This document shows, one piece after another, positions 4,833 through 61,617 of a stretch of DNA of 64,000 nt. The notes under the pieces are model-generated. The model was not told the origin of the DNA. It saw only the letters and a list, made by a program, of their open reading frames with translations, and ran no database searches. The DNA comes from Acidobacteriota bacterium (lineage in GTDB: Bacteria; Acidobacteriota; Aminicenantia; Aminicenantales; Saccharicenantaceae): positions 17,826-81,825 of the forward strand of contig JAQURD010000005.1 of the NCBI GenBank assembly GCA_028749115.1, in the 5' to 3' direction. A program made the position numbers and the translations under genes. Every line of letters begins with the position of its first letter. Positions within the stretch are counted from its first letter, which is position 1.

Positions 4833-5097
4833 TTAGTCCAGGCCAGTCTGATTGAAAGACTTTTGAAAATTTTCTGACTTTGCTTATTCTGATCCGGTCG
4901 GCGGAATTCTTTTCTCTTTTGTAGGTTTGATTTTAACACGGATTAAAAAGGAAATTCTAATTAAAAATGATCAACCGGAAATCGCCTGGCCTTAATATTT
5001 AGCCTTAGTTGCTATTTATCTAATCTGGATGAAAATCATCCATTTACGGCTTAAATGAATTAAGGCTTGATCAAAACCAGAGGAAGAAAGATGATAC

Positions 5098-6048
5098 TTA
5101 TCTTGAGCTGAACCTCTTGGGCCGGTCCTGTGGCCAGAGCTTCTCCGGGTATTTTCCTTCTTTGATTAATTGATAAAGACTGGTCTTAACCACTGACCGA
5201 TCCTGCTGGTAGGTTACACCAAACCATCTTTCTTCAGTCGTCAGGACTCTGATCTTAGCCTTCTTTTCTCTTGACAGGGCACCGGCTACTTCTGGAATAT
5301 AAAACTCAGCCTTGCTCAGATCAGTCTCGGGGTCAGCCAGAAATGATTTAAAACGGGTTTCAAGTTCGGGGAAAATGCTGGGTGTCAGCCCGAAGATATT
5401 CATCGAAGCCAGATCATCAGGTGAAAGGGCCTGCCAGGTCTGGCCATCTTCCGTATATTTGATGCCGTCTGGAAATTTCTGGACTCTGGTCCTTTCTCTC
5501 AGGTCAAGAAGATAACCATCAGGCGAGACACGGCAGATGCCCCGGGCTACTTGGCCGTGTTCAGAGAGCGTATTTCCCAGACGATAAGCGACCAGAGCAT
5601 AGTTATAATATGAAGGTTCATCTTTGGTCTGTCTCATGTAATCGGCCAGCTTTTTGATGGCCTCATAGCCATAAAAATCATCCGCATTGAGGACCAGAAA
5701 ATTACTGGATATTACCGGTTGGCAGAGCATCACTGCCTGACCTGTCCCCCAGGGTTTTTCCCTGCTAGCTGGCACCTTAAAGCCAGGCGGCAGGCCACTG
5801 TCGATTTCCTGGAAAACATAGGAGACTTCAAAATGTTTTTCGGCTTCGAAGCCAATCTTTTCTTTAAAAACTTGTTCGAGTTCAGGCCTGATAATGAAAA
5901 CCACCTGTTTGATCCCGGCTCGCCAGGCATCATAAAGGGAATAGTCAATGATTATTTCCCCGTTGGGGCCAACCGGGTCCATCTGCTTCAAGCCGCCGTA
6001 ACGGCTGCCGATGCCCGCGGCCATAATTACCAGGGTAAGTTTATCCAT
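5098..6048 (-). CDS. Sugar-phosphate nucleotidyltransferase family protein
   Basis: N-terminal LVIMAAGIGSRYGG (nucleotidyltransferase G-x-G-[TS]-R signature) and a downstream KPWGTGQAV motif; 316 aa. The exact substrate cannot be inferred. Confidence 0.55.
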   Translation of the reverse strand: MDKLTLVIMAAGIGSRYGGLKQMDPVGPNGEIIIDYSLYDAWRAGIKQVVFIIRPELEQVFKEKIGFEAEKHFEVSYVFQEIDSGLPPGFKVPASREKPWGTGQAVMLCQPVISSNFLVLNADDFYGYEAIKKLADYMRQTKDEPSYYNYALVAYRLGNTLSEHGQVARGICRVSPDGYLLDLRERTRVQKFPDGIKYTEDGQTWQALSPDDLASMNIFGLTPSIFPELETRFKSFLADPETDLSKAEFYIPEVAGALSREKKAKIRVLTTEERWFGVTYQQDRSVVKTSLYQLIKEGKYPEKLWPQDRPKRFSSR

Positions 6049-15230: not shown

Positions 15231-17956
15231 TGGCGAAGACTGGCCGGGCCGGATTGTTGCTTATCTTTTTACTAGCCGTTTTTTTCCTGCCTCTTCTGGG
15301 TGACGAGCCGCCGGTCATTGGCCAGGTCAATGTTCTAGTGGACGGCTGGCCGGCAGATGAGGCGATTGTCAATCTGGTTGGCGTAAAGCCTGGCCAGTCT
15401 CTATCTGATTATCAACTTGATCAGATTTTAAAGCGTCTGATGAAAACCGGGTTTTATGCCGGTGCTAACATCTATAAGAGCCATGAGCAGCCACCATCTC
15501 TGACTTTTAATCTAATCAGAAATACCATGATTAAAAGCCTGAAAATTTCTGCTCCTTCCGGGCTGGCTCGTGCCATAAAGAGAGGTCTGACCTATTTAAA
15601 AGAGGGCGGCAGCCTGAATGAGTCGGTTCAAAACACAGCCCTCCAGGAGATAGAAGAAATTCTTAGAGAGGAAGGCTGCTTTTACCCCAGAATTGAATTC
15701 GAAACTAAAAAAATAGAAAACTCCAATCTGGCTGAAGTGGAAATAAAGCTGACTGACTGGAAAAGATTGGTTATTGGCCGGCTGGAAATTGAAGGTAAAA
15801 ATATTTTACCCGAGGATGAATTTGAAAAGCTCCTCGGGCTGAAATCTGGAGACTATTATCTGCCCAAAAAACTGGCTGGTGGCTTAACCAGGATTAAAAA
15901 AGCCTATAACGAACAGGGTTACCGCTGGGCAGAGATCAGGCTGGGCTCAGAGTCTGATCATCAGGCCGAAGGCACCGTTGACTTGAGGATTTTTATTGAT
16001 CCATCAGTTAGAATCCATCTGGAGATAACCGGTGCTGATCTGCCTGTCAAACTGATTCAGCCTGTCTGGGAGCAAAAGGTATTTGAAGAGTGGGCTCTGG
16101 CTGAGGGTGAAACTATTTTGCTTAAACATCTCAGAAAGCAAGGCTATATTCTGGCTACAGTTAGATCAAAAGTTGAAAGGAAAGAAAATGATCTTTATGT
16201 CATCTACCAGGTTCATCAGGGAACAAAATTTGATATTAGTGAAGTCCAGTTCAAAGGAAATGTGGCTTTTAATGAGAAAAGTTTGAAAAAAGCCCTCGGC
16301 CTGGGAGAAAAAGTTTTATTTTTCCCTTATTTAGATGGGCAGGAGATATACGAATTACCGGAAAGGATAATTTCCTTTTATGAACGGCAGGGGTTTGCTC
16401 AGGCCAAAGCCGGACTGAATTTTGTCAGGCGAGGCAATTCTATCCGTCCGGTTATTTTTATAGAAGAAGGCCCGCAGCAGATGATAAAAAGTCTGGAAAT
16501 TCAGGGTAACCGTTCTATCGATAACCAGGAAATCATGGAACAGATAAAAGCCAGGCCAGAAAAACCTTATTATCGGCCGGATCTGCAAAAGGACTTAGAA
16601 AAAATTAATTTGCTTTACCTCAACAGAGGTTTCAGGGGAACCGAAATCAACCTGGAAACAGCATCAGGCAATGATCATAATTTTGACCTGGTTATAAAGA
16701 TAGCTGAAGGCCAGAGAATGAAAGTGGCGAATATTTTTATCAGCGGTTTTCAACAGACAAAGAAAAAAATAATTCAGAAAGAAGTCAAGCTGAAGCCGGG
16801 AGATTGGGCTGAATATAACAAATTACAGGAAACAAAAAGGGGCCTGGACAGCCTGGGCATCTTTTCTGAGGTTAAAGTTGAAGAACTGGCCGGCGGGCCA
16901 GAGACAGTCAATGTTTCTATTCAGGTGAGAGAAGGAGCACAGAATTATGGCGGCCTGGGACTTGGCCTGGAAACCAGGGATGAGGTTAGAACTATCGCTC
17001 TCTGGCAAAATGGCCTCCGGCCAAGAATAACAGCTGAATATCTGGGATCAAATTTTTTCCGGAATGCCTCGCAATTCAGTCTGGTCGGCCAGTTGAGTTT
17101 GGTGGATAAAAGGCTGGTTGGCACCTATCAACAGCCTTATATTTTCGGTTTAAAAATGAGAACCTTTTTGACTGGTTATCTTGAAGAAGAAGACCGGACC
17201 AGTTTTGATTATCGCCGGCGAGGTTTCAGCCTGTCAACTATAAAAAATCTGTTCAGCCATTTTTCTTTGTCTTTAGCCGGAGGTGCTCTGAAGACCTGGC
17301 AGATCAATGTTGATCCGGCGATCACTCCCTCGGAGGTCGAAAGAGAAAGGCTCCCCTATTCCATAGCTTATGTTTCCACGACTTTTATTAACGATACCAG
17401 AAATGATACTTTTAATCCGGAAAGAGGTTACTTTTTAAGTCTGGCTCTGGAAAAAGCTTTTCCACTTTTCCACACTGAGTCTGATTTTTTCAGGCTCTTT
17501 ACTAAATTTCAGTATTTTTACCCCTTCAGTCCCAATATCAACTTTCATACAACTATTAGATTTGGACTGGCTTCGGGCCTTGTCCCCATCCCGGAAAAGT
17601 TTTTTGCTGGCGGCAGCAATTCTTTCCGCGGGACTTCTTTTGAAAAGCTCGGTCCTTTAAATCCGGAGTCAGGTCTGCCGTTGGGAGGCAATACTATTTT
17701 TCTTTTCAATATGGAAGCCAGGTTCAGGCTGATCAAAAGCTTGCCTGGTCTTTATGGAGCAGTTTTTTATGATATGGGAAATGTCTTTGCAGAATTGAAA
17801 GATTTTAATTTTCTGGAAATAAGGCAGGCCGTTGGACTCGGTCTCTGCTTAAAAACACCACTTGGTCCGATAAGATTTGACATGGGCTGGAATCTGAATG
17901 CTAATAAAAAAAGATGGAAGCCTCTTTTCTTTTTAACTATAGGAAATATGTTCTGA
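15227..17956 (+). CDS. bamA: Omp85-family outer membrane protein assembly factor (BamA/TamA-like)
   Basis: 909 aa with a signal peptide, repeated POTRA-like (polypeptide-transport-associated) modules, a C-terminal beta-barrel with alternating aromatic pattern, and a terminal Phe (…TIGNMF). Confidence 0.8.
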   Translation: MMAKTGRAGLLLIFLLAVFFLPLLGDEPPVIGQVNVLVDGWPADEAIVNLVGVKPGQSLSDYQLDQILKRLMKTGFYAGANIYKSHEQPPSLTFNLIRNTMIKSLKISAPSGLARAIKRGLTYLKEGGSLNESVQNTALQEIEEILREEGCFYPRIEFETKKIENSNLAEVEIKLTDWKRLVIGRLEIEGKNILPEDEFEKLLGLKSGDYYLPKKLAGGLTRIKKAYNEQGYRWAEIRLGSESDHQAEGTVDLRIFIDPSVRIHLEITGADLPVKLIQPVWEQKVFEEWALAEGETILLKHLRKQGYILATVRSKVERKENDLYVIYQVHQGTKFDISEVQFKGNVAFNEKSLKKALGLGEKVLFFPYLDGQEIYELPERIISFYERQGFAQAKAGLNFVRRGNSIRPVIFIEEGPQQMIKSLEIQGNRSIDNQEIMEQIKARPEKPYYRPDLQKDLEKINLLYLNRGFRGTEINLETASGNDHNFDLVIKIAEGQRMKVANIFISGFQQTKKKIIQKEVKLKPGDWAEYNKLQETKRGLDSLGIFSEVKVEELAGGPETVNVSIQVREGAQNYGGLGLGLETRDEVRTIALWQNGLRPRITAEYLGSNFFRNASQFSLVGQLSLVDKRLVGTYQQPYIFGLKMRTFLTGYLEEEDRTSFDYRRRGFSLSTIKNLFSHFSLSLAGGALKTWQINVDPAITPSEVERERLPYSIAYVSTTFINDTRNDTFNPERGYFLSLALEKAFPLFHTESDFFRLFTKFQYFYPFSPNINFHTTIRFGLASGLVPIPEKFFAGGSNSFRGTSFEKLGPLNPESGLPLGGNTIFLFNMEARFRLIKSLPGLYGAVFYDMGNVFAELKDFNFLEIRQAVGLGLCLKTPLGPIRFDMGWNLNANKKRWKPLFFLTIGNMF

Positions 17957-27429: not shown

Positions 27430-27502
27430 TGGCCAGGGACGGAATTGAACCGCCGACGCAGGGATTTTCAGTCCCTCGCTCTACCGCCTGAGCTACCTGG
27501 CC
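27430..27502 (-). tRNA. tRNA-Phe (anticodon GAA)
   Basis: Reverse complement GGCCAGGTAGCTCAGGCGGTAGAGCGAGGGACTGAAAATCCCTGCGTCGGCGGTTCAATTCCGTCCCTGGCCA folds as a cloverleaf: a 7-bp acceptor stem, GCTC/GAGC D-stem, anticodon loop CUGAAAA and a GGCGG/CCGUC T-stem. CCA is not encoded. Confidence 0.85.
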
Positions 27503-44767: not shown

Positions 44768-46576
44768 ATGAAGCTAATTAACCTGTTTAAAAAAAAGGGC
44801 TGGCCCCTGGCTATCTGTCTGGTTATTCTCAGCGGACCTACCCGGGCGGAAGAGGGCAGACTGGCTACGTTTCTCTCTCCGGCTAATTTAAAGCCGGGAA
44901 TGACCTTCAGGCTTGTCATTTTTTCTGAAAACGGAAGTAAGCTGCTGGAAAACGGCCTGAATGTTATTTGCCATGGTCCCGGGAATAAAGCAAGCCGCCT
45001 GATGATGAAAAAAAAGAATGGCGGTCCGCCCTTCTGGCAATGGTGGTCGGGTGAGGTCAAGGACAGCGGGTGGCACCGGCTGGAAATAAGAAACGGCCGC
45101 CAGGTCGTTAAGACCTTTGACTTTGAAGTGCCGGCCGGGCTATCTCAGGTGGTAGCTTCACCATATTACTGGCCAGCAGGAAACAACTGGAACAGGGAAA
45201 AGGAGAATCTCTATTCAGCCTGGATTGAAGCTCTTTTTGGTCAGAGTGATGAGGATGATTCCTGGCCAAACTTAAGTGTGGTTCTCAAAGATCCGGAAAA
45301 AAATTTTCTTTATAATCACCTTGGTCTGGGGGAAGATGAAAGTGACGTCCAGCTTCAACCGGATTGTGCTGATAATCCTTTTGTGTTGCGTGGCTATTTT
45401 GCCTGGAAGTTAAGGTTGCCCTTCGGTTTTCATGCCTGTTCCCGTGGTTCCCTGTCTGAACCGCCTGCCTGTCAGAGATGGTTTATTAATGAAATGCCAG
45501 GCTCAAGGGGAAATGAAGTCAATAAATTTCACCGGCTGATGCGGCTGGTCATGGATACCGTTCATTCGGGAACAGCCAGGACAGCTTTAAAGGCAGAAGA
45601 GTCAGATTATTATCCTCTCCCACTCGAGAGACATAAACTGCCGCCGGGAACAGTTTTTGCTGACCCATACGGCCACACCCTGGTTATTGTTCACTGGCGC
45701 CCTCAAACCGATGATCAGCCTGGAGAGCTTCTGGCCGTAGATGCTCAACCCGATAATACTATTGGCATTAAGAGATTCTGGCCGGGCAATTTCCTTTTTG
45801 CTACCGAGAACGTTGTCGGGCAACCAGGTTTTAAGGCCTTCAGGCCAATCATCATTAAAAATAATCAGCTCAAATTGATGACTAATGGGGAAATAGAGCT
45901 CAGCCTGGATTATGGGCAAATCTCCTTTGAGCAGTTAAACCTCCAGCCTGAGGATTTTTATAATAGAATGGAACAATTGATAAATCCCCGGCCTCTTGCC
46001 CCTGAAGCTGTCCTGTCAGAGCTTTTCCGGGCTTTACAAGAACAACTTCAGGTTAGGGTGGCTTCGGTCGGGATGGCAGAAAAATTTAAGAAGGAACATC
46101 CTGATTATATTATCCCTATGCCTTCAGGGGCAGCTATCTTTCAGTCAAGTGGCCCCTGGGAAGATTTATCGACACCCAACCGTGACCTCCGTGTTCTTAT
46201 CGCCATTGATACTATCAAAAATTTCCCTGATAAGGTTCTCAAACATCCCGGGCTGTATAAAATAAAAAAATCAGGAGCACCGGAAAAAATTAGGACCGGG
46301 CTAATCCAGCTATCAGACAAACTGGCCAATGAAATGAAAATTACCTATCGCCGGTCTGATGACCGCCCCTGGAGTCTATCGCTGAAAGAGGTAATGGCCA
46401 GGCAGGAGGCATTTGAGATGGGCTACAACCCCAATGATTGTGTGGAATACCGCTGGGGAGCACCTGCCGGTTCAGAGGAATATTCTACTTGCCGCCGGTA
46501 CGCTCCGCCAGCTCAAAGGGAAAAAATGACTGCTGTCCGCATCTGGTTCAAAAAGCGCCTGCATCCTCCTACCTGA
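44768..46576 (+). CDS. Large secreted hypothetical protein (602 aa), candidate Cys/His hydrolase fold
   Basis: Signal peptide (…LVILSGPTRAEEG). No family recognised. Conserved-looking FHACSRGS and PGTVFADPYGHTLVIVHW segments resemble the Cys and His blocks of NlpC/P60- or transglutaminase-like papain-fold enzymes. This is inference only. Confidence 0.55.
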   Translation: MKLINLFKKKGWPLAICLVILSGPTRAEEGRLATFLSPANLKPGMTFRLVIFSENGSKLLENGLNVICHGPGNKASRLMMKKKNGGPPFWQWWSGEVKDSGWHRLEIRNGRQVVKTFDFEVPAGLSQVVASPYYWPAGNNWNREKENLYSAWIEALFGQSDEDDSWPNLSVVLKDPEKNFLYNHLGLGEDESDVQLQPDCADNPFVLRGYFAWKLRLPFGFHACSRGSLSEPPACQRWFINEMPGSRGNEVNKFHRLMRLVMDTVHSGTARTALKAEESDYYPLPLERHKLPPGTVFADPYGHTLVIVHWRPQTDDQPGELLAVDAQPDNTIGIKRFWPGNFLFATENVVGQPGFKAFRPIIIKNNQLKLMTNGEIELSLDYGQISFEQLNLQPEDFYNRMEQLINPRPLAPEAVLSELFRALQEQLQVRVASVGMAEKFKKEHPDYIIPMPSGAAIFQSSGPWEDLSTPNRDLRVLIAIDTIKNFPDKVLKHPGLYKIKKSGAPEKIRTGLIQLSDKLANEMKITYRRSDDRPWSLSLKEVMARQEAFEMGYNPNDCVEYRWGAPAGSEEYSTCRRYAPPAQREKMTAVRIWFKKRLHPPT

Positions 46577-46700: not shown

Positions 46701-47000
46701 ATGTCTTCAAAACTTTATGTAGGTAACTTGAACTACAGGACAACCGAGGAAAAACTGAAGGATTTATTTTCTCAGTTTGGAGAAGTTACCTCAGTTAACA
46801 TCCTGCAGGGTCGCGGTTTTGGTTTCGTCGAGATGTCGGCTGAAGAAATGGCTGAGGAAGCCAAGAATAAGCTAAATGGAACAGAGTTTGAAGGTCGGAA
46901 AATTATTGTCAATGATGCCAGACCAAAAACAGAAAGAAGAAGCGGTGATCGCCAGCAGGGGCCTGGACCTCAGGGCAGAAGGAATTTCAACCGTTTTTGA
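46701..47000 (+). CDS. RNA-binding protein with a single RRM domain
   Basis: RNP2 (LYVGNL) and RNP1 (RGFGFVEM) motifs, then an Arg/Gly-rich tail. Strong AGGAGG ribosome-binding site before the ATG at 46701; 99 aa. Confidence 0.85.
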   Translation: MSSKLYVGNLNYRTTEEKLKDLFSQFGEVTSVNILQGRGFGFVEMSAEEMAEEAKNKLNGTEFEGRKIIVNDARPKTERRSGDRQQGPGPQGRRNFNRF

Positions 47001-47248
47001 TAGACTCTGATCTATAATCTCACCAGCTTTTAAGAACAGGGGGAAGCCTCTGGCCGGAGATGGAAGGGCCTGAGTCTCTATCTCCTTGCCAGGAGACTGA
47101 ATTCAAAGCTAAAAGCCAGAGTAAACCTTTCCTTCTTTTTTTCCGTAGTCTTTAGTGTAGATAAAATTTAATGAGTAATAGATTTTTATCTAGCTGAAAT
47201 AAATGTATATTAAACATCAGGAGAATAGGCAGAGGATAAAATTCGAGA

Positions 47249-47827
47249 ATGGAACGGAAAAATGCCGGTAGTTATCAGTCTCATCCAGAATTTCTGGTCT
47301 CCAGAGTCAAAGAGGGAGATAGAGAAGCATTTATGAAACTCGTCGGGCTTTATCAACAAAAAATATTTGTTTTGACTTACTCTATGGTCAGAGAAAGGGA
47401 AGATGCACTTGATCTGGTGCAGGAGACTTTCCTGAGGCTTTATGAAAAAATTAATACCTACCGGCCCGGGGAAAACTTTAGTGCCTGGCTGATGAAGATA
47501 GCTAGAAATATCTGTATTGATTTTATCAGGAAGCAAAAAGCCAGGAGAAAAGAAAGCCTTGACAGCCTGAGCCCTGACCGGATTGATTTAGCTGATTCTG
47601 GCCAGGATCCAGCTCGCTTTAACCCGGGAGAAATAATCCAGAAGGCAGTCAGCCGCTTGCCAGCTAAACAGCAGGCAGTCTTTGTTCTTCACCACTATCA
47701 GGATCTCAAATATGAAGAAATTGCAGGCGAATTAAAAATTTCAGCTGGCACTGTTAAATCATTGCACTATAAAGCTGTACGAAAACTGAGGAAGATGCTG
47801 GCCAGGCAGCTGGGAGGTGAGCAGTGA
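47249..47827 (+). CDS. ECF-subfamily RNA polymerase sigma-70 factor
   Basis: Region 2 (…LVQETFLRLYEKINTYRP…FSAWLMKIARNICIDFIRK…) and region 4 helix-turn-helix (…DLKYEEIAGELKISAGTVKSLHYKAVRKL…); 192 aa. The stop overlaps the anti-sigma start (GTGA). Confidence 0.85.
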   Translation: MERKNAGSYQSHPEFLVSRVKEGDREAFMKLVGLYQQKIFVLTYSMVREREDALDLVQETFLRLYEKINTYRPGENFSAWLMKIARNICIDFIRKQKARRKESLDSLSPDRIDLADSGQDPARFNPGEIIQKAVSRLPAKQQAVFVLHHYQDLKYEEIAGELKISAGTVKSLHYKAVRKLRKMLARQLGGEQ

Positions 47828-48618
47828 ATAAATGCCGTGATTACCGGTCAGACTGGCTGGCCTTTCTCCGTGGAGAGCTTGAGGCAGACAGACGGCAGGT
47901 GATGAAGGAGCATCTAAACCGTTGTAGCTGTTGCCAGAAAGAATTAAGAGCCATAAAAAATTTCATCAGTCAGACAGATAATTTCCATAACGAACTTAAA
48001 GAAACTATGGCTGGCATTGACTGGGATAAGCTTCAGCTAACTATTACCGGGCGTGCTTTTGAACAGAAAGCCCGCCGGGAAGATCCCAGGCCGGCAACCG
48101 GCTTTAAACTTGGCCGCTGGCAGCCGGTAGCTGCCGGCCTTATTGCTGGCCTATTGCTTGGTGCTTTTTTTACCTTTTTATGGATGCGATCAGGGAGATT
48201 AGACGAATCTGGTGCCAGAAAAGAATCAGGGATAAGCTTACCAGCTGGCTTTGTTCAAAGAGTGGATTTGGCCCTGGCCCAGCGCCAGACTATAGATTAC
48301 CTTGACCGGAGCCAGTTCCTGCTGCTGGAACTTGTCCAGTCAAAAACGGCCAATCAGGCTTCTTCCTTTCTGACTCAAGATAAGGTTCAAAAATTATTGA
48401 CTGAGAAAAAGTATCTGAACAGTCAACTGAATGAAATTAAGCTGGCTAAGGCCAAGATGCTCTGTGACCAGATTGAAATGCTTTTTCTGGAACTCGTTCA
48501 GCTCAGTCCTCAAATGTCAGATGCGGAGCTTGAAAATCTTAGAGAAATAATTGAAAGTCGCCAGCTTCTGCTGAAAATCAATCTGGTCAAGAAGGAATTA
48601 CAGCAAGGTGAGGCCTAA
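47824..48618 (+). CDS. Zinc-finger (ZAS-type, HxxxCxxC) transmembrane anti-sigma factor
   Basis: HLNRCSCCQ motif at the N-terminus, one transmembrane helix (VAAGLIAGLLLGAFFTFLWM) and a roughly 140-aa extracytoplasmic domain. Cotranscribed with the ECF sigma gene. Confidence 0.65.
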   Translation: MNKCRDYRSDWLAFLRGELEADRRQVMKEHLNRCSCCQKELRAIKNFISQTDNFHNELKETMAGIDWDKLQLTITGRAFEQKARREDPRPATGFKLGRWQPVAAGLIAGLLLGAFFTFLWMRSGRLDESGARKESGISLPAGFVQRVDLALAQRQTIDYLDRSQFLLLELVQSKTANQASSFLTQDKVQKLLTEKKYLNSQLNEIKLAKAKMLCDQIEMLFLELVQLSPQMSDAELENLREIIESRQLLLKINLVKKELQQGEA

Positions 48619-49483
48619 AGTGAAAAACCGGACTAAGATTTTAGTGTTTTTGGCAGGCATCTTATTGTTGCTTTACTCCGGGCTGGCTGCCCAGACAGCC
48701 GGAGAGAAGATAAAGCACGATGAGCAGTTATTGCAGGAAGCCAAACTGTTGATTTTTGATAAAAAGTGGAGTCAGGCTGAACAGAAACTGAGCGAGTTTT
48801 TAAGCCGCTATCCTAAAAGTGCTCTTTATTCCCAGGCTCTTTTCTATAAGGGAAAGTGCCTGACTGAGCAGAGGGGCAAAGAACTGACGGCCTGGCAGAC
48901 TTTTGAGGAATTTTTAAAGAGACCGGATAAGCCTGAGGGCCTGGTAGAGGAAGCCCAGATTGCCAGTCTTGACCTGGCTTTTAACCTTTACCAGAGTGGG
49001 CAGACAAGTTTTGGCCAGATACTGACTGGCCGGCTAAATGATCCAAACCCGGTAATCCGTTATTATGCAGCTTTTAAGTTGAGCTATCTTCAGGATAAGA
49101 AGCTGGCCAGGGAGGCCGTTCCGGTTTTGAAAAAGTTGATGGAAGAAGAAAAAGATCCGGAACTGGTGGACCGGGCAAAAATTGCTCTGCTAAGAATTTC
49201 TCCAGAGTTCTTTAAAGAGATAAAAGACCGCTCTGATTCTGGGGGGCATCGTCTGGTCAAAATCAGGATATTCGAAAAAGGCAAAAAAACTCCCAATGTT
49301 TCAGTCAATTTTCCTCTGGCTCTGGCTGACCTGGCTCTCCAGGCTATGCCGGAGAGGGATAAAAACCGGATCAAGCAGCAAGGATATGATCTTGACCGGA
49401 TTCTGGAAGATCTGGCCAAATCACACGAAAAGCTGATCAGAATTGAGGAAGATGGCAATTTAATTGAAATCTGGATCGAATAA
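48608..49483 (+). CDS. Secreted helical-repeat (TPR/HEAT-like) protein with a C-terminal domain paralogous to the next gene
   Basis: Signal peptide, helical repeat region, and a C-terminal roughly 80 aa (HRLVKIRIFEKG…LIRIEEDGNLIEIWIE) that align with the downstream protein. Confidence 0.5.
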   Translation: MRPKVKNRTKILVFLAGILLLLYSGLAAQTAGEKIKHDEQLLQEAKLLIFDKKWSQAEQKLSEFLSRYPKSALYSQALFYKGKCLTEQRGKELTAWQTFEEFLKRPDKPEGLVEEAQIASLDLAFNLYQSGQTSFGQILTGRLNDPNPVIRYYAAFKLSYLQDKKLAREAVPVLKKLMEEEKDPELVDRAKIALLRISPEFFKEIKDRSDSGGHRLVKIRIFEKGKKTPNVSVNFPLALADLALQAMPERDKNRIKQQGYDLDRILEDLAKSHEKLIRIEEDGNLIEIWIE

Positions 49484-49514
49484 ATCTATGGATCATAATA
49501 TAAGGAGGATTAAG

Positions 49515-49901
49515 ATGAAAAAGATAGCGATGATAGCTGTTCTGACAGTTATGGCTCTGAGCTTAACAGCCGGGCCGTCTTTCACCCTGGATAAGGATGA
49601 TTATAGGGTGATAAAAAAGGCCGTTGGAGAAAATCCTAAAAGCCAGCCTGCGGCTGAAGTAAAATGGCTTAGAGTCTTAATAGTTGAGAATGCCTCGGGT
49701 AAAGAAAAAGTAAAGGTGACTATGCCCATTTCACTGGTTGAGATTTTTGCCCGCTGCGCTGAATACCAGAAAGACGAAGTGAAAGGCAAGGGAGGTTCTT
49801 TGAATTTTAGCGAGTTACTGGAGCAACTGAAAAAAGCCGGTCCAATGGCCATCGTAGAAATCAATGAGGAAGATGAGACAATCAAAGTCTGGCTCGAATA
49901 A
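49515..49901 (+). CDS. Small secreted protein, paralog of the C-terminal domain of the upstream gene
   Basis: Signal peptide after the ATG at 49515 (AAGGAGG ribosome-binding site). The C-terminal part (KWLRVLIVENASGKEKVKV…AIVEINEEDETIKVWLE) aligns with the previous protein's C-terminus. Confidence 0.5.
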   Translation: MKKIAMIAVLTVMALSLTAGPSFTLDKDDYRVIKKAVGENPKSQPAAEVKWLRVLIVENASGKEKVKVTMPISLVEIFARCAEYQKDEVKGKGGSLNFSELLEQLKKAGPMAIVEINEEDETIKVWLE

Positions 49902-49936
49902 AAGAGCTGATCCTTCTCTCTTTTTAACAGGCAGCA

Positions 49937-49975
49937 AGAGGGAACCTGGCCGGCCAGGCTCCCTCTTTTTTATTT
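49937..49975 (+). terminator. Rho-independent terminator closing the ECF sigma operon
   Basis: AGAGGGAACCTGGCC / GGCCAGGCTCCCTCT stem (one mismatch), followed by TTTTTTATTTATTTT, 36 nt after the stop codon. Confidence 0.65.
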
Positions 49976-50258: not shown

Positions 50259-51374
50259 ATGGCTAAATATCGGCTGGCAATTCTGCCGGGTGACGGTATA
50301 GGCAAAGAGGTCATAGAGGCGGCCATGATTGTTCTGAAGCGCCTGAACCTTAAAGCTGAATATGTTTATGGCGATATAGGCTGGGAATTCTGGTGCCGTG
50401 AAGGCAACCCGCTGCCTGACCGGACTATTAAACTTTTAAAAGAAACAGATGCCTGTCTTTTCGGGGCAATTACTTCCAAGCCAAAAGAAGATGCTGCGAG
50501 GGAACTTGCCCCTGAATTTCAGGGTAAAGGGCTATCTTACGTCAGCCCGATTGTCAAGCTTCGCCAGCTATTTGATCTCTATATAAATCTCAGGCCATGC
50601 AAAGCTTATCCCGGTAATCCACTTAATTATCGTGACCATATTGACCTGGTTATTGTCAGGGAAAATACAGAGGGAAGCTATGCTGGTGTTGAGTTCTTCC
50701 CCCTGCCCGAAGAGGTCAGGCGGGCTTTGCTGGTCCATCCGAAAATGAAGGATTTTAAAGATGTTTCTGGAGATGAGATAGCTGTTTCTACCCGGATCAT
50801 GACCAAAAAAGGTTGTGAGAGAATTGTCAGAGCGGCTTTTGAATTTGCTCGCCAGAATAACAGGAAATCAGTTACGCTGGTTGAGAAGCCCAATGTTCTA
50901 AGGGAGACTGGCGGCCTGATGCTGCGGGAAGCAAGAAGAGTGGCGGCCGGCTATCCTGATATTAAGTTTTTTGAAGCCAATGTAGATGCCATGTGCATGT
51001 GGTTAATCAAAAATCCTCAGGATTATGATGTGCTGGTGGCCGAGAACCTCTTCGGCGATATAATTTCTGATCTGGCTGCTCAGCTGGTTGGGGGCCTGGG
51101 TTTTGCCTGTGCCGGCAATATTGGAGACAAATATGCCGTCTTTGAGCCGACTCACGGCTCAGCTCCTAAGTACACTGGCCTTTACAAAGTTAATCCGACG
51201 GCCACTTTGCTGGCGGTTAAAATGATGCTGGACTGGCTCGGGGAGACAAATCTGGCCAGGACGCTCGAACAGGCCATAGCTGAAGTCATTAAGGAAGGAA
51301 AAGTCAGGACATATGATATGGGTGGCTCAGCCAAGACACTGGAGATAGCCGAAGCCGTGGCGGCCAGGCTCTAG
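50259..51374 (+). CDS. Isocitrate/isopropylmalate dehydrogenase family protein (NAD(P)-dependent beta-decarboxylating dehydrogenase)
   Basis: LPGDGIGKEV N-terminus, …VRENTEGSYAG…, …LFGDIISDLAA…GGLG… motifs. At 371 aa this is short-form IDH/IPMDH-like, and the substrate cannot be assigned from sequence alone. Confidence 0.8.
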   Translation: MAKYRLAILPGDGIGKEVIEAAMIVLKRLNLKAEYVYGDIGWEFWCREGNPLPDRTIKLLKETDACLFGAITSKPKEDAARELAPEFQGKGLSYVSPIVKLRQLFDLYINLRPCKAYPGNPLNYRDHIDLVIVRENTEGSYAGVEFFPLPEEVRRALLVHPKMKDFKDVSGDEIAVSTRIMTKKGCERIVRAAFEFARQNNRKSVTLVEKPNVLRETGGLMLREARRVAAGYPDIKFFEANVDAMCMWLIKNPQDYDVLVAENLFGDIISDLAAQLVGGLGFACAGNIGDKYAVFEPTHGSAPKYTGLYKVNPTATLLAVKMMLDWLGETNLARTLEQAIAEVIKEGKVRTYDMGGSAKTLEIAEAVAARL

Positions 51375-51411
51375 CTTTAACTGCCTGAAAGGGTGGCTAA
51401 CTGGATAGAAG

Positions 51412-52110
51412 ATGCTTGTTCTCAGCCTGGATACCACGACCAGTTATGGTTCGGTAGCTCTTGTCTCAGAAAAAAAGCTTATAGCCGAAATAAATTATTT
51501 ATCGCCATCAACTCATTCGCGCCAGGTGTTTGAGGCTCTGGAGCTAGTCCTTAAGATTTCAGGTAAGAGCTTGAATGAACTGGATGGACTGGCCATAGCG
51601 TCTGGCCCTGGTTCTTTTACTGGAATCAGAATAGGGCTGAGCCTGGCCAAAGCCTTAGCTCTGGCTTCTGGCCTGCCGGTCGCGGCCGTTTCTTCTCTTC
51701 AGGCGCTGGCCATGAAATTGATTTTGCCCGGGGTTAGAATGATTTCGCCTTTAATAGATGCCAGGAAAGGCCAGGTCTTTGCCTGTGTTTATCAAGTCGA
51801 GAATTCAAGACTCAAAGAAATTTTGCCGGCCGGGGTTTATGAACCAGAACAATTTTTAGCCATGATTCCTGGAGGACAGCCTGTTTATTTTATCGGGACC
51901 GGGGCTGATGCGTATCTTCCATTGATTAAGAATAAACTTGGCCAGCAAGCAGTTATGGAGGAGAGAAGTTATTATTTAGCGGCTGAAATCGGCCGGCTGG
52001 GTGAATCCATCTTGAGTCAGGGAAAAGGCCTGAAGCCGGGACAGATTGAGCCGGTTTATTACCGGCCGTCCCAGGTGGAGGAGAAAAAAACTGATCGAAC
52101 CAAAGACTAG
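51412..52110 (+). CDS. tsaB: tRNA threonylcarbamoyladenosine biosynthesis protein TsaB (YeaZ)
   Basis: MLVLSLDTTTSYGSVAL… (inactive Kae1/YgjD paralog pattern, a TsaD-like fold lacking the catalytic residues) and 232 aa. Followed by rimI, as is typical. Confidence 0.8.
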   Translation: MLVLSLDTTTSYGSVALVSEKKLIAEINYLSPSTHSRQVFEALELVLKISGKSLNELDGLAIASGPGSFTGIRIGLSLAKALALASGLPVAAVSSLQALAMKLILPGVRMISPLIDARKGQVFACVYQVENSRLKEILPAGVYEPEQFLAMIPGGQPVYFIGTGADAYLPLIKNKLGQQAVMEERSYYLAAEIGRLGESILSQGKGLKPGQIEPVYYRPSQVEEKKTDRTKD

Positions 52111-57904: not shown

Positions 57905-59179
57905 TTATTCTTTTATGCATCCTTGTTCAACGACTACTTTCCCTTGCTTGATGACTGTTTTAATTGGATTTTTCCCGAGTTCATAAGCCAGATGAAGATA
58001 AGAGGGGAGATCGCATAAGATCAGGTCAAAAGACTTACCAGGCTCAATTGAGCCGGCCTCATCCTGCCGGTCAAGGGCATAGGCGGCATTGATGGTGCAG
58101 GCATTCAGGGCTTCCTCGATGGTCATTTTTAATGTAAAAACTCCCAGCTGCAGCACAAAAAGCATGGAGAACAAATTGGAACTGCCCGGATTGAAATCGC
58201 TGGCCAGAGCGACGATGGTCCCACAGTCGATCAATTCTCTGGCTGGTGCTTTTTTATCCGTCATCAAGAAGAAGGAAACGCCGGGCAGGAGGATAGCCGC
58301 TGTCCGGCTTCCAGCCAGTTTTTCGATGCCGGCCGGCGTGATATTTAGCAGGTGCTCAACCGATCTGGCGCCCAGCTCGACTGCTAGTTCTGTCCCTCCT
58401 ATCGGCACAAATTCATCAGTATGGATTTTAAGCTTGTAACCGAGCTTAATGGCCTGGATGGCAAGTTCTCTGGTCTCGTCGAGATTAAAAACTGTCGGTT
58501 CGCAAAAAATATCAAAAAACTCAGCCAGGTTTGATGCCTTTATTTCTGGCATGAGCTCTTCTTTTAATAATTTGATATAAGAGCTGTGATCGGATTTAAA
58601 TTCAGGGGGTATCTCATGAGCTCCCATAAAAGTCGGCACTATCGAGACTGGCTGGCGGCGGGCCAGGTTTTTCAAGACCCGGAGCTGCTTAAGCTCATCT
58701 TCCCGATTCAGACCATAACCGCTTTTAGCTTCGATAGTCGTTGCTCCATTGAGCAGCATCGTCTCAAGCCTTTTGAGACAGATATCCTCCAGCTCGGGAG
58801 CAGGGATAGCCCGGGTGGCTTCAACCGTGGTTTGGATACCCAGGCCGAGTTCGGCTAACTGCAGATAAGTGTAGCCAGCCAGCCGGAGGGAAAATTCCTT
58901 CGCCCGGTCACCGGCAAAAGGCAGGTGGGTATGACAATCGATGAAGCCGGGTAGTCCAACCAGGCCAGAAGCATCTATGACCCTGGCCTTTCTGGTTAAA
59001 GAGACATTGGCCTTGAAGTCTTTTTCTTTCCCCATAAAGACAATCCGACCGTTTAAAGCAGCCAGCCAGGCTTTTTCTACCAGGCCTGCTTCCCGCATGT
59101 CATTTTTAGTTTTAGGTTTTTCACCGGCACAGGTCACTAACTGTGAAATGTTGGTGACAACAGCATCAGCGTAAATCAT
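57905..59179 (-). CDS. hutI: Imidazolonepropionase-like amidohydrolase (HutI family)
   Basis: …GFIDCHTHL…, …IHTDEF…, …ASDFNPGSS… metal-binding motifs characteristic of HutI. The ATG at 59179 lies 8 nt after the ftsZ stop. Confidence 0.72.
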
Positions 59180-60386
59180 TGGGTGTTTTCCTGATAGCTG
59201 TCTGTCCAATCTGTCTTGTTTTTCTCACAAAAGCCGGGATGTCCAGTTCCTTCCAGTCAACCTCAGACTGACTGGCTTCAACCACTGGCTCCTGCGGTTC
59301 TTTTGGTTCAAAAAGGTAAGGAGGGGTAGGGGTGTTGACAGGCACAGCTGGCTGGGACCTGGTTAGCCTGGTTCTTATTTCTTCAGTAGTAGGACGTCTA
59401 TTTTCCCGGTGATCAAAGCCGGTGGCAATAACTGTAATCTTAATAGCTTCCTTCATGTCTTCGTCCAGAACTGTCCCAAAGATAATATTGGCTTCAGGAT
59501 CAGCCAGGCTGGTTATCAACTGAGAAGCTTTTGAGACTTCATGCAAGGTCATATCTTTTCCGCCAGTCACATTGATCAGGACACCTCTGGCCCCCTCTAT
59601 GGAAGTATCTACGAGGAGAGGACTGCTGATGGCCTTTTGAGCTGCCTCTACTGCCCGGTTTTCGCCGGAAGCCAGGCCTGTCCCCATAAAGGCCATGCCC
59701 ATACCTTTCATAATTGATTTGACATCGGCGAAATCAAGGTTGATGAGACCAGGCCTGGTTATCAAATCAGATATACCCTGAGTAGCCTGGCGTAAAACAT
59801 CGTCGGCCAGCCGGAAGGATTCGGAGATAGAAGTATTGAGATTAACCATTTCTAGCAGTCTTTCGTTCGGGATGGCGATGACAGTGTCTACCACCTCCTT
59901 GAGTTCCTGTAAACCCTCTTCCGCCTGACGGAACCGGACGCGACCCTCAAAAGCAAAAGGCATGGTAACAATGGCAATGACCAGAATATCCAGACTGGCA
60001 GCCAGATTGGCGAGAACTGGTGTAGCCCCGGTACCGGTTCCGCCACCGAGGCCTGTAGTCAGGAAAACCATATCAGCCCCTTCCATTATCTCCGCTAAAC
60101 TCTCAGTGTCTTCTTCTGCTGCCTGACGGCCAACCTTAGGATCGCCGCCTGACCCTAATCCCTTGGTTAATTTACCACCGATCTGAATCTTAACAGATGC
60201 CCGGTTAGTGGAAAGTGCTTGTTTATCCGTGTTAACCGCGATGAAGTCCACCCCTTCAATGCCGGCCTCAATCATCCGGTTGACAGCATTGCCCCCGCCA
60301 CCGCCGATGCCGATGACTTTTATCTTAGCTCCCGAAGATTCTTCAGCCAGATGAAACTTGATTTTACTACCTGCTATTTCTCGCAT
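59166..60386 (-). CDS. ftsZ: Cell division protein FtsZ
   Basis: [13 protein letters not shown] and [10 protein letters not shown] tubulin motifs. The ATG at 60386 has a GGAGGA ribosome-binding site. The ORF track's upstream extension would overlap ftsA. Confidence 0.95.
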
Positions 60387-60396
60387 TTTGTCCTCC

Positions 60397-61617
60397 TTAT
60401 TCATTGAACCAGTCTTTAATTCTCGTCCAGAAACCTTTCTTTTTTTCTCTGGAAAAACCGCGCTCCTGAATCTGGTTATATCCATAAAGAATGAGTCCGA
60501 CCGCAGTTGCATAGTCCGGCGTGCTGGCCCGGTCAATCAGCCCGCCAATATAGTTAGGATCTCCTCGCCTGACGGGCAGATCAAAGATTTCTTCTGCTAC
60601 CTCTTCCAGGCCATCGAGCAGGGCGGTCCCACCAGTTAAAACCAGTCCGGAATTTAAAGATTTTTCATAACCCATTCTTTTTATATCGCCATCAACCAGC
60701 CTGAATATTTCCTCAGCCCTTGGCTGGATAATATCAGCTAAAATCTGCCGGGAGAGAAGCCGGGATTTTCTGCTTCTGCCCACAGTTGGAACTTCAATTG
60801 TTTCCTGCTCTTCAGCTACCGGCAGGGCTACACAACCATATTTCTTTTTAATTTTTTCTGCTTCAGGTATTGGTGTTCTGAGGCCGACAGCGATATCATT
60901 GGTAAAATTATCTCCTCCAAGGGGAATAGTTGAGGTATACCAGAGTGAACCGCGTTCAAAGATAGCTACCTCTGTGGTTCCAGCCCCCAGATCTATTAAA
61001 CCCACGCCAAGTTCCCTTTCATCCTGAGTTAAAGTGGCGTAACTGGTGGCAATCTGGTTCAGGACAATTTCATGGATACCAATGTTCGACTTCTCCAGGC
61101 AGCTTTTTAGGTTTTGCAGTGAGGTGATGGCTGAGGTCACGATGTGAACATTGACTTCCAGTTTTATGCCGCTCATCCCGAGAGGATCTTTAATTCCATC
61201 CTGCTCATCAACGATAAATTCCTGGGGAATAATATGGATAATTTCCCGGTCAGGAGGAATAGACAGGGCTCTGGCCTGATCAACTACCCGTTTTATGTCC
61301 TCTTTGGAAATTTCTCTGTTTTTACCTGAGACAGCCACCACTCCCCGGCTATTAAAACTCTTAATATGAGCTCCAGAAATGCCCACATAAGCTGAATCTA
61401 TTTCTACTCCTGCCATAAGTTCAGCTTCTTCCTGAGCTTTTTTGATGGCCGAGATGGTTTGATCCAGGTTGACCACCACCCCCTTGCGAATACCTCTCGA
61501 TTCGGCCATACCGATGCCAATAATCTCGACTTTCTGCTCTTCATTAATTTCCCCGATAATGGCCACTATTTTTTTAGTGCCAATATCAAGGCCAACCAGA
61601 TAATTGTTCCTGGCCAT
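60397..61617 (-). CDS. ftsA: Cell division protein FtsA
   Basis: Actin-like fold: …[16 protein letters not shown]… N-terminus and a C-terminal amphipathic tail (…[14 protein letters not shown]). Lies between ftsQ and ftsZ. Confidence 0.9.

Follow-up and report, generated by a model that had tools for sequence, protein, structure and literature searches.

We analysed a 64-kb window of acidobacterial DNA (the whole stretch of 64,000 nucleotides, positions 17,826 to 81,825 of contig JAQURD010000005.1) and found, at 47249-49901 on its plus strand, four co-directional genes for a sigma factor of the extracytoplasmic function (ECF) type, an anti-sigma factor and two further proteins, g3 and g4, which share a paralogous C-terminal domain and are predicted to be exported. 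Our favoured reading, to which we assign a probability of roughly 60%, is that Candidatus Aminicenantes (Acidobacteriota) has in these genes an ECF envelope-stress module that resembles SigW/RsiW, activates itself and has the paired-domain exported proteins as its fixed output. The operon itself is of a known kind, an autoregulated ECF sigma/anti-sigma pair accompanied by accessory proteins of the periplasm. None of the databases searched describes the family of the accessory domain, which is tied with unusual clarity to a single promoter type.

Organization and conservation of the operon

The four genes were called from the open reading frame (ORF) listing together with the sequence, and their order is conserved in relatives. 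For the context counts, one genome per species was scanned; relatives of g3 occurred in 224 genomes, and the best 80 loci were kept, most of them labelled Aminicenantes, Saccharicenans or Acidobacteriota and some carrying generic or evidently wrong labels (for example, 'uncultured Eubacteriales'). Among these best loci the sigma gene lay upstream of g3 in 75 of 75 cases, as did the anti-sigma gene (75/75), and g4 lay downstream in 77 of 79, being missing from loci L068 and L075. This order is kept among genomes whose g3 proteins share only 43-49% identity. The preliminary description of this DNA had grouped both exported genes with the ECF pair, and their conservation beside it in relatives bears that grouping out.

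The first gene (47249-47827, plus strand) encodes a 192-amino-acid (aa) protein of the sigma-70 family. It matched the Pfam families Sigma70_r2 (3e-19) and Sigma70_r4_2 (3e-16) with nothing else of note, and scored 116 bits against a cut-off of 42.9 with the NCBIfam model TIGR02937 (sigma70-ECF). With regions 2 and 4 only and the family model passed, it is an ECF (group 4) sigma factor. At the equivalog level its best NCBIfam matches were PRK12513 and SigW models, every one of them under its cut-off.

The second gene (47824-48618, plus strand, GTG start) encodes a single-pass protein of 264 aa with the motif H30-x3-C34-x2-C37, a hydrophobic stretch at about residues 100-122 and an extracytoplasmic domain of ~140 aa that is strongly conserved and has no known family or ligand. 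In the window protein the Pfam zf-HC2 match reached 19.6 bits, under the gathering score of 22.2; among the aligned anti-sigma sequences (the window protein and 12 orthologs) zf-HC2 matched 13 of 13, at best with 2.9e-10. H30, C34 and C37 are invariant across the alignment, and HxxxCxxC was found in 66 of 77 anti-sigma orthologs. Searched against the PDB, the family profile matched RsiW (5wuq_C, 1.6e-3) and RslA (3hug_B). Judged by the HxxxCxxC/zf-HC2 criterion, the protein is an anti-sigma factor of the class I zinc-binding (ZAS) type, which by analogy would bind zinc and sequester the sigma factor.

The junctions between the genes are short. The sigma and anti-sigma genes overlap by four bases, GTGA, at 47824-47827, and g4 (49515-49901, plus strand) begins at an ATG at 49515, behind a GGAGG ribosome-binding site and 31 nucleotides (nt) after the end of g3. 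Both features are the same in the ORF listing and the sequence as had been described; the product of g4, previously given as 129 aa, is 128 aa long. Two starts can be considered for g3 (48620-49483, plus strand), the GTG at 48620 (287 aa) and the GTG at 48608 (291 aa), the latter having been chosen in the preliminary description. The start at 48620 is the more probable, because it is the one in the NCBI-derived record (P0033), because a AAGGTGAGG Shine-Dalgarno sequence sits 6 nt upstream and because many orthologs begin 2 nt past the anti-sigma stop. The anti-sigma/g3 junction would therefore be a 1-nt gap and not the 11-nt overlap first reported, and the tight coupling of the two genes holds under either start.

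Downstream of g4, an intrinsic terminator is predicted at 49936-49975 on the plus strand. It comprises a hairpin at 49936-49967, with a GC-rich stem of 13 bp and a loop of 4 nt, followed by UUUUUUAUUUAUUUU, a U-run that extends to 49975 (U6AU3AU4). The RNA fold of 86 nt gave a free energy of -27.1 kcal/mol (z = -2.5) and left one position unpaired in each arm of the stem. A simple terminator scan missed this element; the fold recovers the rho-independent terminator already proposed as the end of the unit. The proposal of a single ECF sigma/zinc-finger anti-sigma unit extended by two putatively exported proteins is supported.

The domain shared by g3 and g4

The g3 product is a predicted exported TPR/HEAT solenoid protein that carries the shared domain at its C terminus (49253-49480, plus strand; residues 212-287 in the 287-aa numbering), and that of g4 consists of an N-terminal hydrophobic leader, one helix and the same domain (49665-49898, plus strand; residues about 51-128). 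BLASTP with composition adjustment returned no significant alignment between the two. Smith-Waterman alignment (BLOSUM62) paired residues 216-291 of g3 with 51-128 of g4 at a score of 77 and about 26% identical positions, close to the 25% that had been estimated by eye; the z-score was 8.6-11, and none of 2,000 shuffles reached the observed score. Comparison of the g4 family (24 sequences) with the g3 family (34 sequences) by hhalign gave a probability of 94.5% and an E-value of 7.4e-8 over 90 columns. Orthologs of g3 were also matched by the hidden Markov model (HMM) of the g4 family, down to E 2e-10. A profile built only from unrelated proteins with two tandem domain copies, described below, found both g4 (2.3e-11) and g3 (5.6e-9), and one that includes g3 and g4 themselves matched them at 2.3e-33 and 7.6e-31, respectively (profiles A7 and A4). 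The C-terminal ends read LIEIWIE in g3 and TIKVWLE in g4, as near-identical as first noticed.

The similarity of the two C termini is true paralogy, as the preliminary description, which named a formal pairwise alignment as the test, had proposed. The BLASTP result is the one point in favour of a resemblance by chance or shared composition, and it is best seen as a heuristic miss, since Smith-Waterman and profile methods overturn it. Together with the cross-family HMM matches and the same order of secondary-structure elements in the AlphaFold2 models of both proteins, they exclude chance for practical purposes. Identity is 18-21% between paralog groups compared with 32-54% within them, and the duplication that gave rise to g3 and g4 is therefore ancient, older than the sampled radiation.

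The shared domain spans ~78 residues in the order beta-beta-alpha-alpha-alpha-beta-beta, with a proline opening helix 1 and a last strand that ends in h-x-h-W-[ILVF]-[ED]. The AlphaFold2 model of g4 is of low confidence (predicted local distance difference test score of 58) and shows beta-beta-alpha-alpha-beta-beta, with its elements in the order seen in the g3 model. No Pfam family was matched by 60 domain sequences from three paralog groups, and a PDB sequence-profile search with the domain returned noise only, the best hit being a de novo TIM barrel (E 0.008). The g4 protein had no Pfam or meaningful NCBIfam match, and its family is conserved at 47-67% identity. We also considered whether the free C terminus (W-I/L-E-COOH) serves as a recognition tag for a PDZ domain or protease and set this idea aside because some g3 orthologs and many tandem proteins extend past W-I/L-E; in the model, the last strand lies within the sheet.

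An exhaustive HMMER search with the combined g3 and g4 domain profile recovered ~1,200 cluster representatives with E-values up to 1e-3, of which 220 reached 1e-10 or better. Among the family are many proteins, 180-196 aa long and predicted to be exported, in which the domain stands twice in tandem; these surfaced only in this exhaustive search, whereas most of what a word-indexed search with the domain alignment returned were fragments of g3 and g4. The domain occurred, in the sequences examined, in at least two copies, either in neighbouring genes or as tandem repeats. One further member, a 240-aa protein from a Joint Genome Institute metagenome (P0293), has a SHOCT-like_DUF2089-C domain (E 3e-9) between two copies. 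No signal peptide is obvious in it, a hint that one branch of the family may be cytoplasmic or localised differently.

An ECF-type promoter and a third paralog

Upstream of the operon, the window contains a putative ECF-type promoter at 47121-47147 on the plus strand (GTAAACCTTTCCTTCTTTTTTTCCGTA), with a -35 element of AAC and a T-tract, a 17-nt spacer and a -10 element of CGTA, or GTAAACC-N16-CGTA in its window form. It was the sole match to [AG]T[GA]AAC[CT]T-N15-CGT[AT] on either strand of the 64 kb, compared with 0.5 in shuffles. The B. subtilis sigma-W promoter type, tGAAACnTTTt at -35 and CGTA at -10 (PMC5758882), closely resembles it. A second, looser AAC-N17-CGT match at 59841 (plus strand) falls inside a minus-strand ORF (59166-60536) and was judged a chance occurrence.

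In relatives, alignment of the intergenic region between the sigma gene and an upstream gene for an RRM protein gave the consensus GTGAACCTTT-N12-CCGTAGTA (AAC-N17-CGT). In 69 of 71 related loci this promoter precedes the unit's first gene, with identical spacing in all, and no further match was found on either strand elsewhere in the 1.34 Mb of those loci. As expected of an ECF sigma factor, the sigma protein has both a co-encoded anti-sigma factor, in the overlapping gene, and an AAC...CGT-type promoter, whose activity is predicted from its sequence. We presume that 47121-47147 is the autoregulatory promoter of the operon.

Many relatives carry a third paralog, g0, between the RRM gene and the sigma gene. 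It encodes a 131-149 aa lipoprotein that contains the shared domain and ends in ...LLWLE. Of 69 loci, 36 have it intact: 35 were called outright, and the other is L025, where it ends in WLQ. In L006, L008 and L010-L023, for example, it sits between the promoter and the sigma gene. The promoter lies upstream of g0 wherever g0 is present, which places all paralogs, the sigma gene and the anti-sigma gene behind one presumably autoregulated promoter. Other loci hold relics with internal deletions (L007, L048 and L031), which in L007 amount to 38 aa, with the signal peptide joined directly to the last strand, and in L048 to a 27-aa remnant. In the window, the alignment of the RRM-sigma intergenic region reveals a candidate relic at 47180-47202 on the plus strand, where AGCTGAAATAA stands opposite the GGCTGGAATAA (W-L-E-stop) of intact g0 genes. 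Judging from these alignments, the window retains only the decayed last codons of g0, and the gene has been lost repeatedly among relatives.

A -10-like hexamer, TATATT, lies at 47206-47211, ~40 nt ahead of the sigma gene and after the g0 stop, and is TATACT in L006-L022. It could be a housekeeping internal promoter for basal expression of the sigma and anti-sigma genes or merely part of a conserved 5' leader.

The promoter type recurs far from this operon. Among 80 metagenome loci examined for the context of the tandem proteins (L081-L160), these proteins were encoded by adjacent gene pairs, one member starting with a leader that resembles a signal peptide and the other carrying a hydrophobic anchor at its N terminus (for example, 4902-5504 and 5483-6043 in L111). 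No sigma or anti-sigma gene was found next to these pairs, save in two loci, where a divergent sigma gene lies at a distance of ~2 kb. The GC content of the contigs is 67%, and ADOP-family permeases are encoded nearby in the two tested, which suggests that the tandem proteins come from other Acidobacteriota. Within 200 nt upstream, 63 of 70 tandem loci have [AG]AAC-N16/17-CGT[AT], against a background of 0.017 per 200 nt, and the consensus is GAACC-N16-CGTAA. The domain family therefore follows the promoter type even without linkage to a sigma gene.

Several neighbouring genes lie outside the operon. The RRM gene, which encodes an RRM_1 RNA-binding protein (46701-47000, plus strand), is a frequent neighbour (upstream in 49 of 67 relatives) and probably a separate unit because it is placed upstream of the ECF promoter. 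Further upstream, a 602-aa ORF (44768-46576, plus strand) with a signal-peptide-like N terminus and no Pfam or NCBIfam match is syntenic, ahead of the RRM gene, in the majority of the nearest relatives, those of the Saccharicenans clade. Past the terminator, a pair of ORFs at 50259-52110 (plus strand) is syntenic in close relatives and located 2-3 kb further away in distant ones; from their translations we take these to be isopropylmalate/isocitrate-dehydrogenase-like and tsaB-like, and they look like unrelated housekeeping genes. The sole Rfam match at the gathering threshold in the 64-kb window was a tRNA gene at 27430-27502 (minus strand).

Proposed mechanism, alternatives and known systems

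Under the favoured reading of a self-activating envelope-stress module, the cytoplasmic zinc-finger domain of the anti-sigma factor, an assignment that follows from the domain matches, would hold the sigma factor inactive, as expected from its family. An extracytoplasmic cue would inactivate the anti-sigma factor, with regulated proteolysis of the kind that acts on RsiW as the probable route, and the freed sigma factor would direct RNA polymerase to the GTAAACC-N16-CGTA promoter at 47121-47147. Given this promoter, the tight junctions and the terminator, the whole unit would be transcribed up to 49936-49975, so that g3 and g4 would constitute the built-in output of the switch. Their domain copies may pair with each other in the periplasm and thereby couple the YbgF/CpoB-like TPR/HEAT scaffold of g3 to g4. 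The complex would then have the cell envelope as its place of action, and feedback from it might also reach the conserved outer domain of the anti-sigma factor.

Several points weigh against this reading. With 120 bits for PRK09641 (cut-off 209) and 110.4 bits for TIGR02948 (cut-off 243.1), the sigma factor stayed far short of the SigW equivalog level. Promoter activity, co-transcription and export are all features that we infer from sequence, and the pairing of domain copies, the YbgF-like scaffold role and the feedback on the anti-sigma factor are hypotheses. We found no conserved catalytic residues in the shared domain, in which only a proline, a leucine and a tryptophan are near-invariant, and when the confident g3 model was used for fold searches, its TPR part dominated the results and the small domain's fold was not placed. 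The stretch between the RRM gene and the promoter yielded no convincing terminator (fold z = -0.5), so that read-through from upstream is possible. Finally, the promoters of the tandem genes would be tied to this operon by their type, which does not imply that the sigma factors are orthologous.

The preliminary description had left open whether g3 and g4 are sensing partners or regulated targets of the sigma/anti-sigma pair. The regulated-target half of that proposal is directly supported by sequence, through the operon promoter and the promoters of the same type at distant, unlinked relatives. That one or both proteins instead act as sensing or co-anti-sigma partners, gating inactivation of the anti-sigma factor through its extracytoplasmic domain as RseB does for RseA, is a tentative, less likely alternative that is also compatible with g3 and g4 being regulon output. 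Their adjacency to the sigma and anti-sigma genes (75/75 and 77/79 loci), the strongly conserved outer domain of the anti-sigma factor, with its lack of a known family or ligand, and the typical use of TPR/HEAT scaffolds as protein-binding modules all fit such a role. It is somewhat weakened by the domain relatives encoded away from anti-sigma genes, as independent ECF-promoter-driven gene pairs without an anti-sigma-like neighbour, and by the repeated loss of g0, which is gone from roughly half of the lineages; g4 is likewise missing from two loci (L068 and L075), and no similarity of either protein to RseB or a known anti-sigma partner family was found.

Two other alternatives fare worse. 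If the four genes were mere neighbours, with g3 and g4 transcribed independently and functionally unlinked to the sigma/anti-sigma pair, one would not expect junctions as tight as those seen (an overlap of 4 nt, then a gap of 1 nt or an overlap of 11 nt, then a gap of 31 nt) before a single terminator, nor an order that outlasts the divergence of g3 to 43-49% identity. The conserved TATATT/TATACT hexamer upstream of the sigma gene does indicate that other promoters may exist, but a promoter scan found no strong sigma-70-type site between the operon genes, its total being no higher than in shuffles, and we judge an unlinked arrangement highly improbable. Still less credible is that the shared module is a divergent DUF4252 domain, a lead raised in the preliminary description. 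The DUF4252 family accompanies ECF sigma/anti-sigma pairs in Bacteroidota, and the analogy is one of context only, namely small exported paralogs beside an ECF pair. Neither the 60 domain sequences, at a limit of E = 1, nor 10 distant relatives, at a limit of 0.1, gave a match to PF14060, and the precomputed Pfam columns of the g4 family were empty, so that this lead is not supported.

Among known systems, the B. subtilis sigW-rsiW operon comes close to the present one. In both, the ECF sigma gene overlaps the gene after it, which encodes a single-pass anti-sigma factor with the HxxxCxxC motif, and both have a promoter, presumed here to be autoregulatory, with AAC and a T-tract at -35 and CGTA at -10; SigW models are among the best NCBIfam matches of the sigma factor, and RsiW is the best PDB match of the anti-sigma profile. 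The sigW-rsiW operon has two genes and no such exported paralogs, whereas the operon described here adds two, and ancestrally three. It also differs in its anti-sigma factor, whose extracytoplasmic domain is unrelated to known families, in the distance of its sigma factor from the SigW cut-offs and in its host, an uncultured and presumably diderm acidobacterial lineage.

The E. coli rpoE-rseA-rseB-rseC operon likewise combines an ECF sigma factor, a single-pass anti-sigma factor and periplasmic accessory proteins behind an autoregulated promoter, in an envelope-stress module that is near-universal within its lineage. RseA is not of the zinc-finger class and the rpoE-type -10 element is TCAAA, in contrast to the zinc-finger anti-sigma factor and the CGTA found here, and neither g3 nor g4 matched the RseB/RseC (MucB/RseB) families in Pfam or NCBIfam at E <= 1. 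The Bacteroidota ECF/anti-sigma/DUF4252 clusters share with this operon the small exported paralogs of unknown function beside an ECF pair, but g3 adds a TPR/HEAT solenoid, and no PF14060 match was found for the present domain. Compared with YbgF/CpoB, g3 scored 34 bits against an equivalog cut-off of 90 (TIGR02795); unlike YbgF/CpoB, LpoP and BamD, it adds HEAT-like repeats and a novel C-terminal domain and has no coiled coil or Tol-Pal context. Literature searches returned nothing on ECF systems of Aminicenantes, and a paper on ECF re-classification contained no match to this context.

A more far-reaching interpretation, which we regard as speculative and unlikely to hold in full, is that the shared domain defines an undescribed extracytoplasmic family (~1,200 clusters at 50% identity, probably across Acidobacteriota) that is the hallmark, co-inherited output of one GAACC-N16-CGTA-recognising lineage of ECF sigma factors. 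Two copies of the domain would then be obligatory for function, whether as a heterodimer formed by the products of neighbouring genes or as a tandem within one molecule, and in Aminicenantes this pair would also complete the regulatory loop by docking on the outer domain of the anti-sigma factor, which has no counterpart elsewhere. If true, it would represent a new kind of envelope-stress sensor and effector.

ECF sigma/anti-sigma pairs are the commonest third pillar of bacterial signalling, and to our knowledge most ECF groups, especially those of uncultured phyla, have neither a known signal nor a known output. Here, an output may be identified from sequence alone, as an unannotated domain family that stays bound to a single promoter type in lineages that diverged deeply and of which, in Aminicenantes, two or three paralogous copies form part of the sigma operon. 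The domain family could be proposed to domain databases, and the promoter/sigma pair could serve as an orthogonal part for synthetic biology. The paired exported domains provide a concrete hypothesis that is testable in E. coli without culturing the organism.

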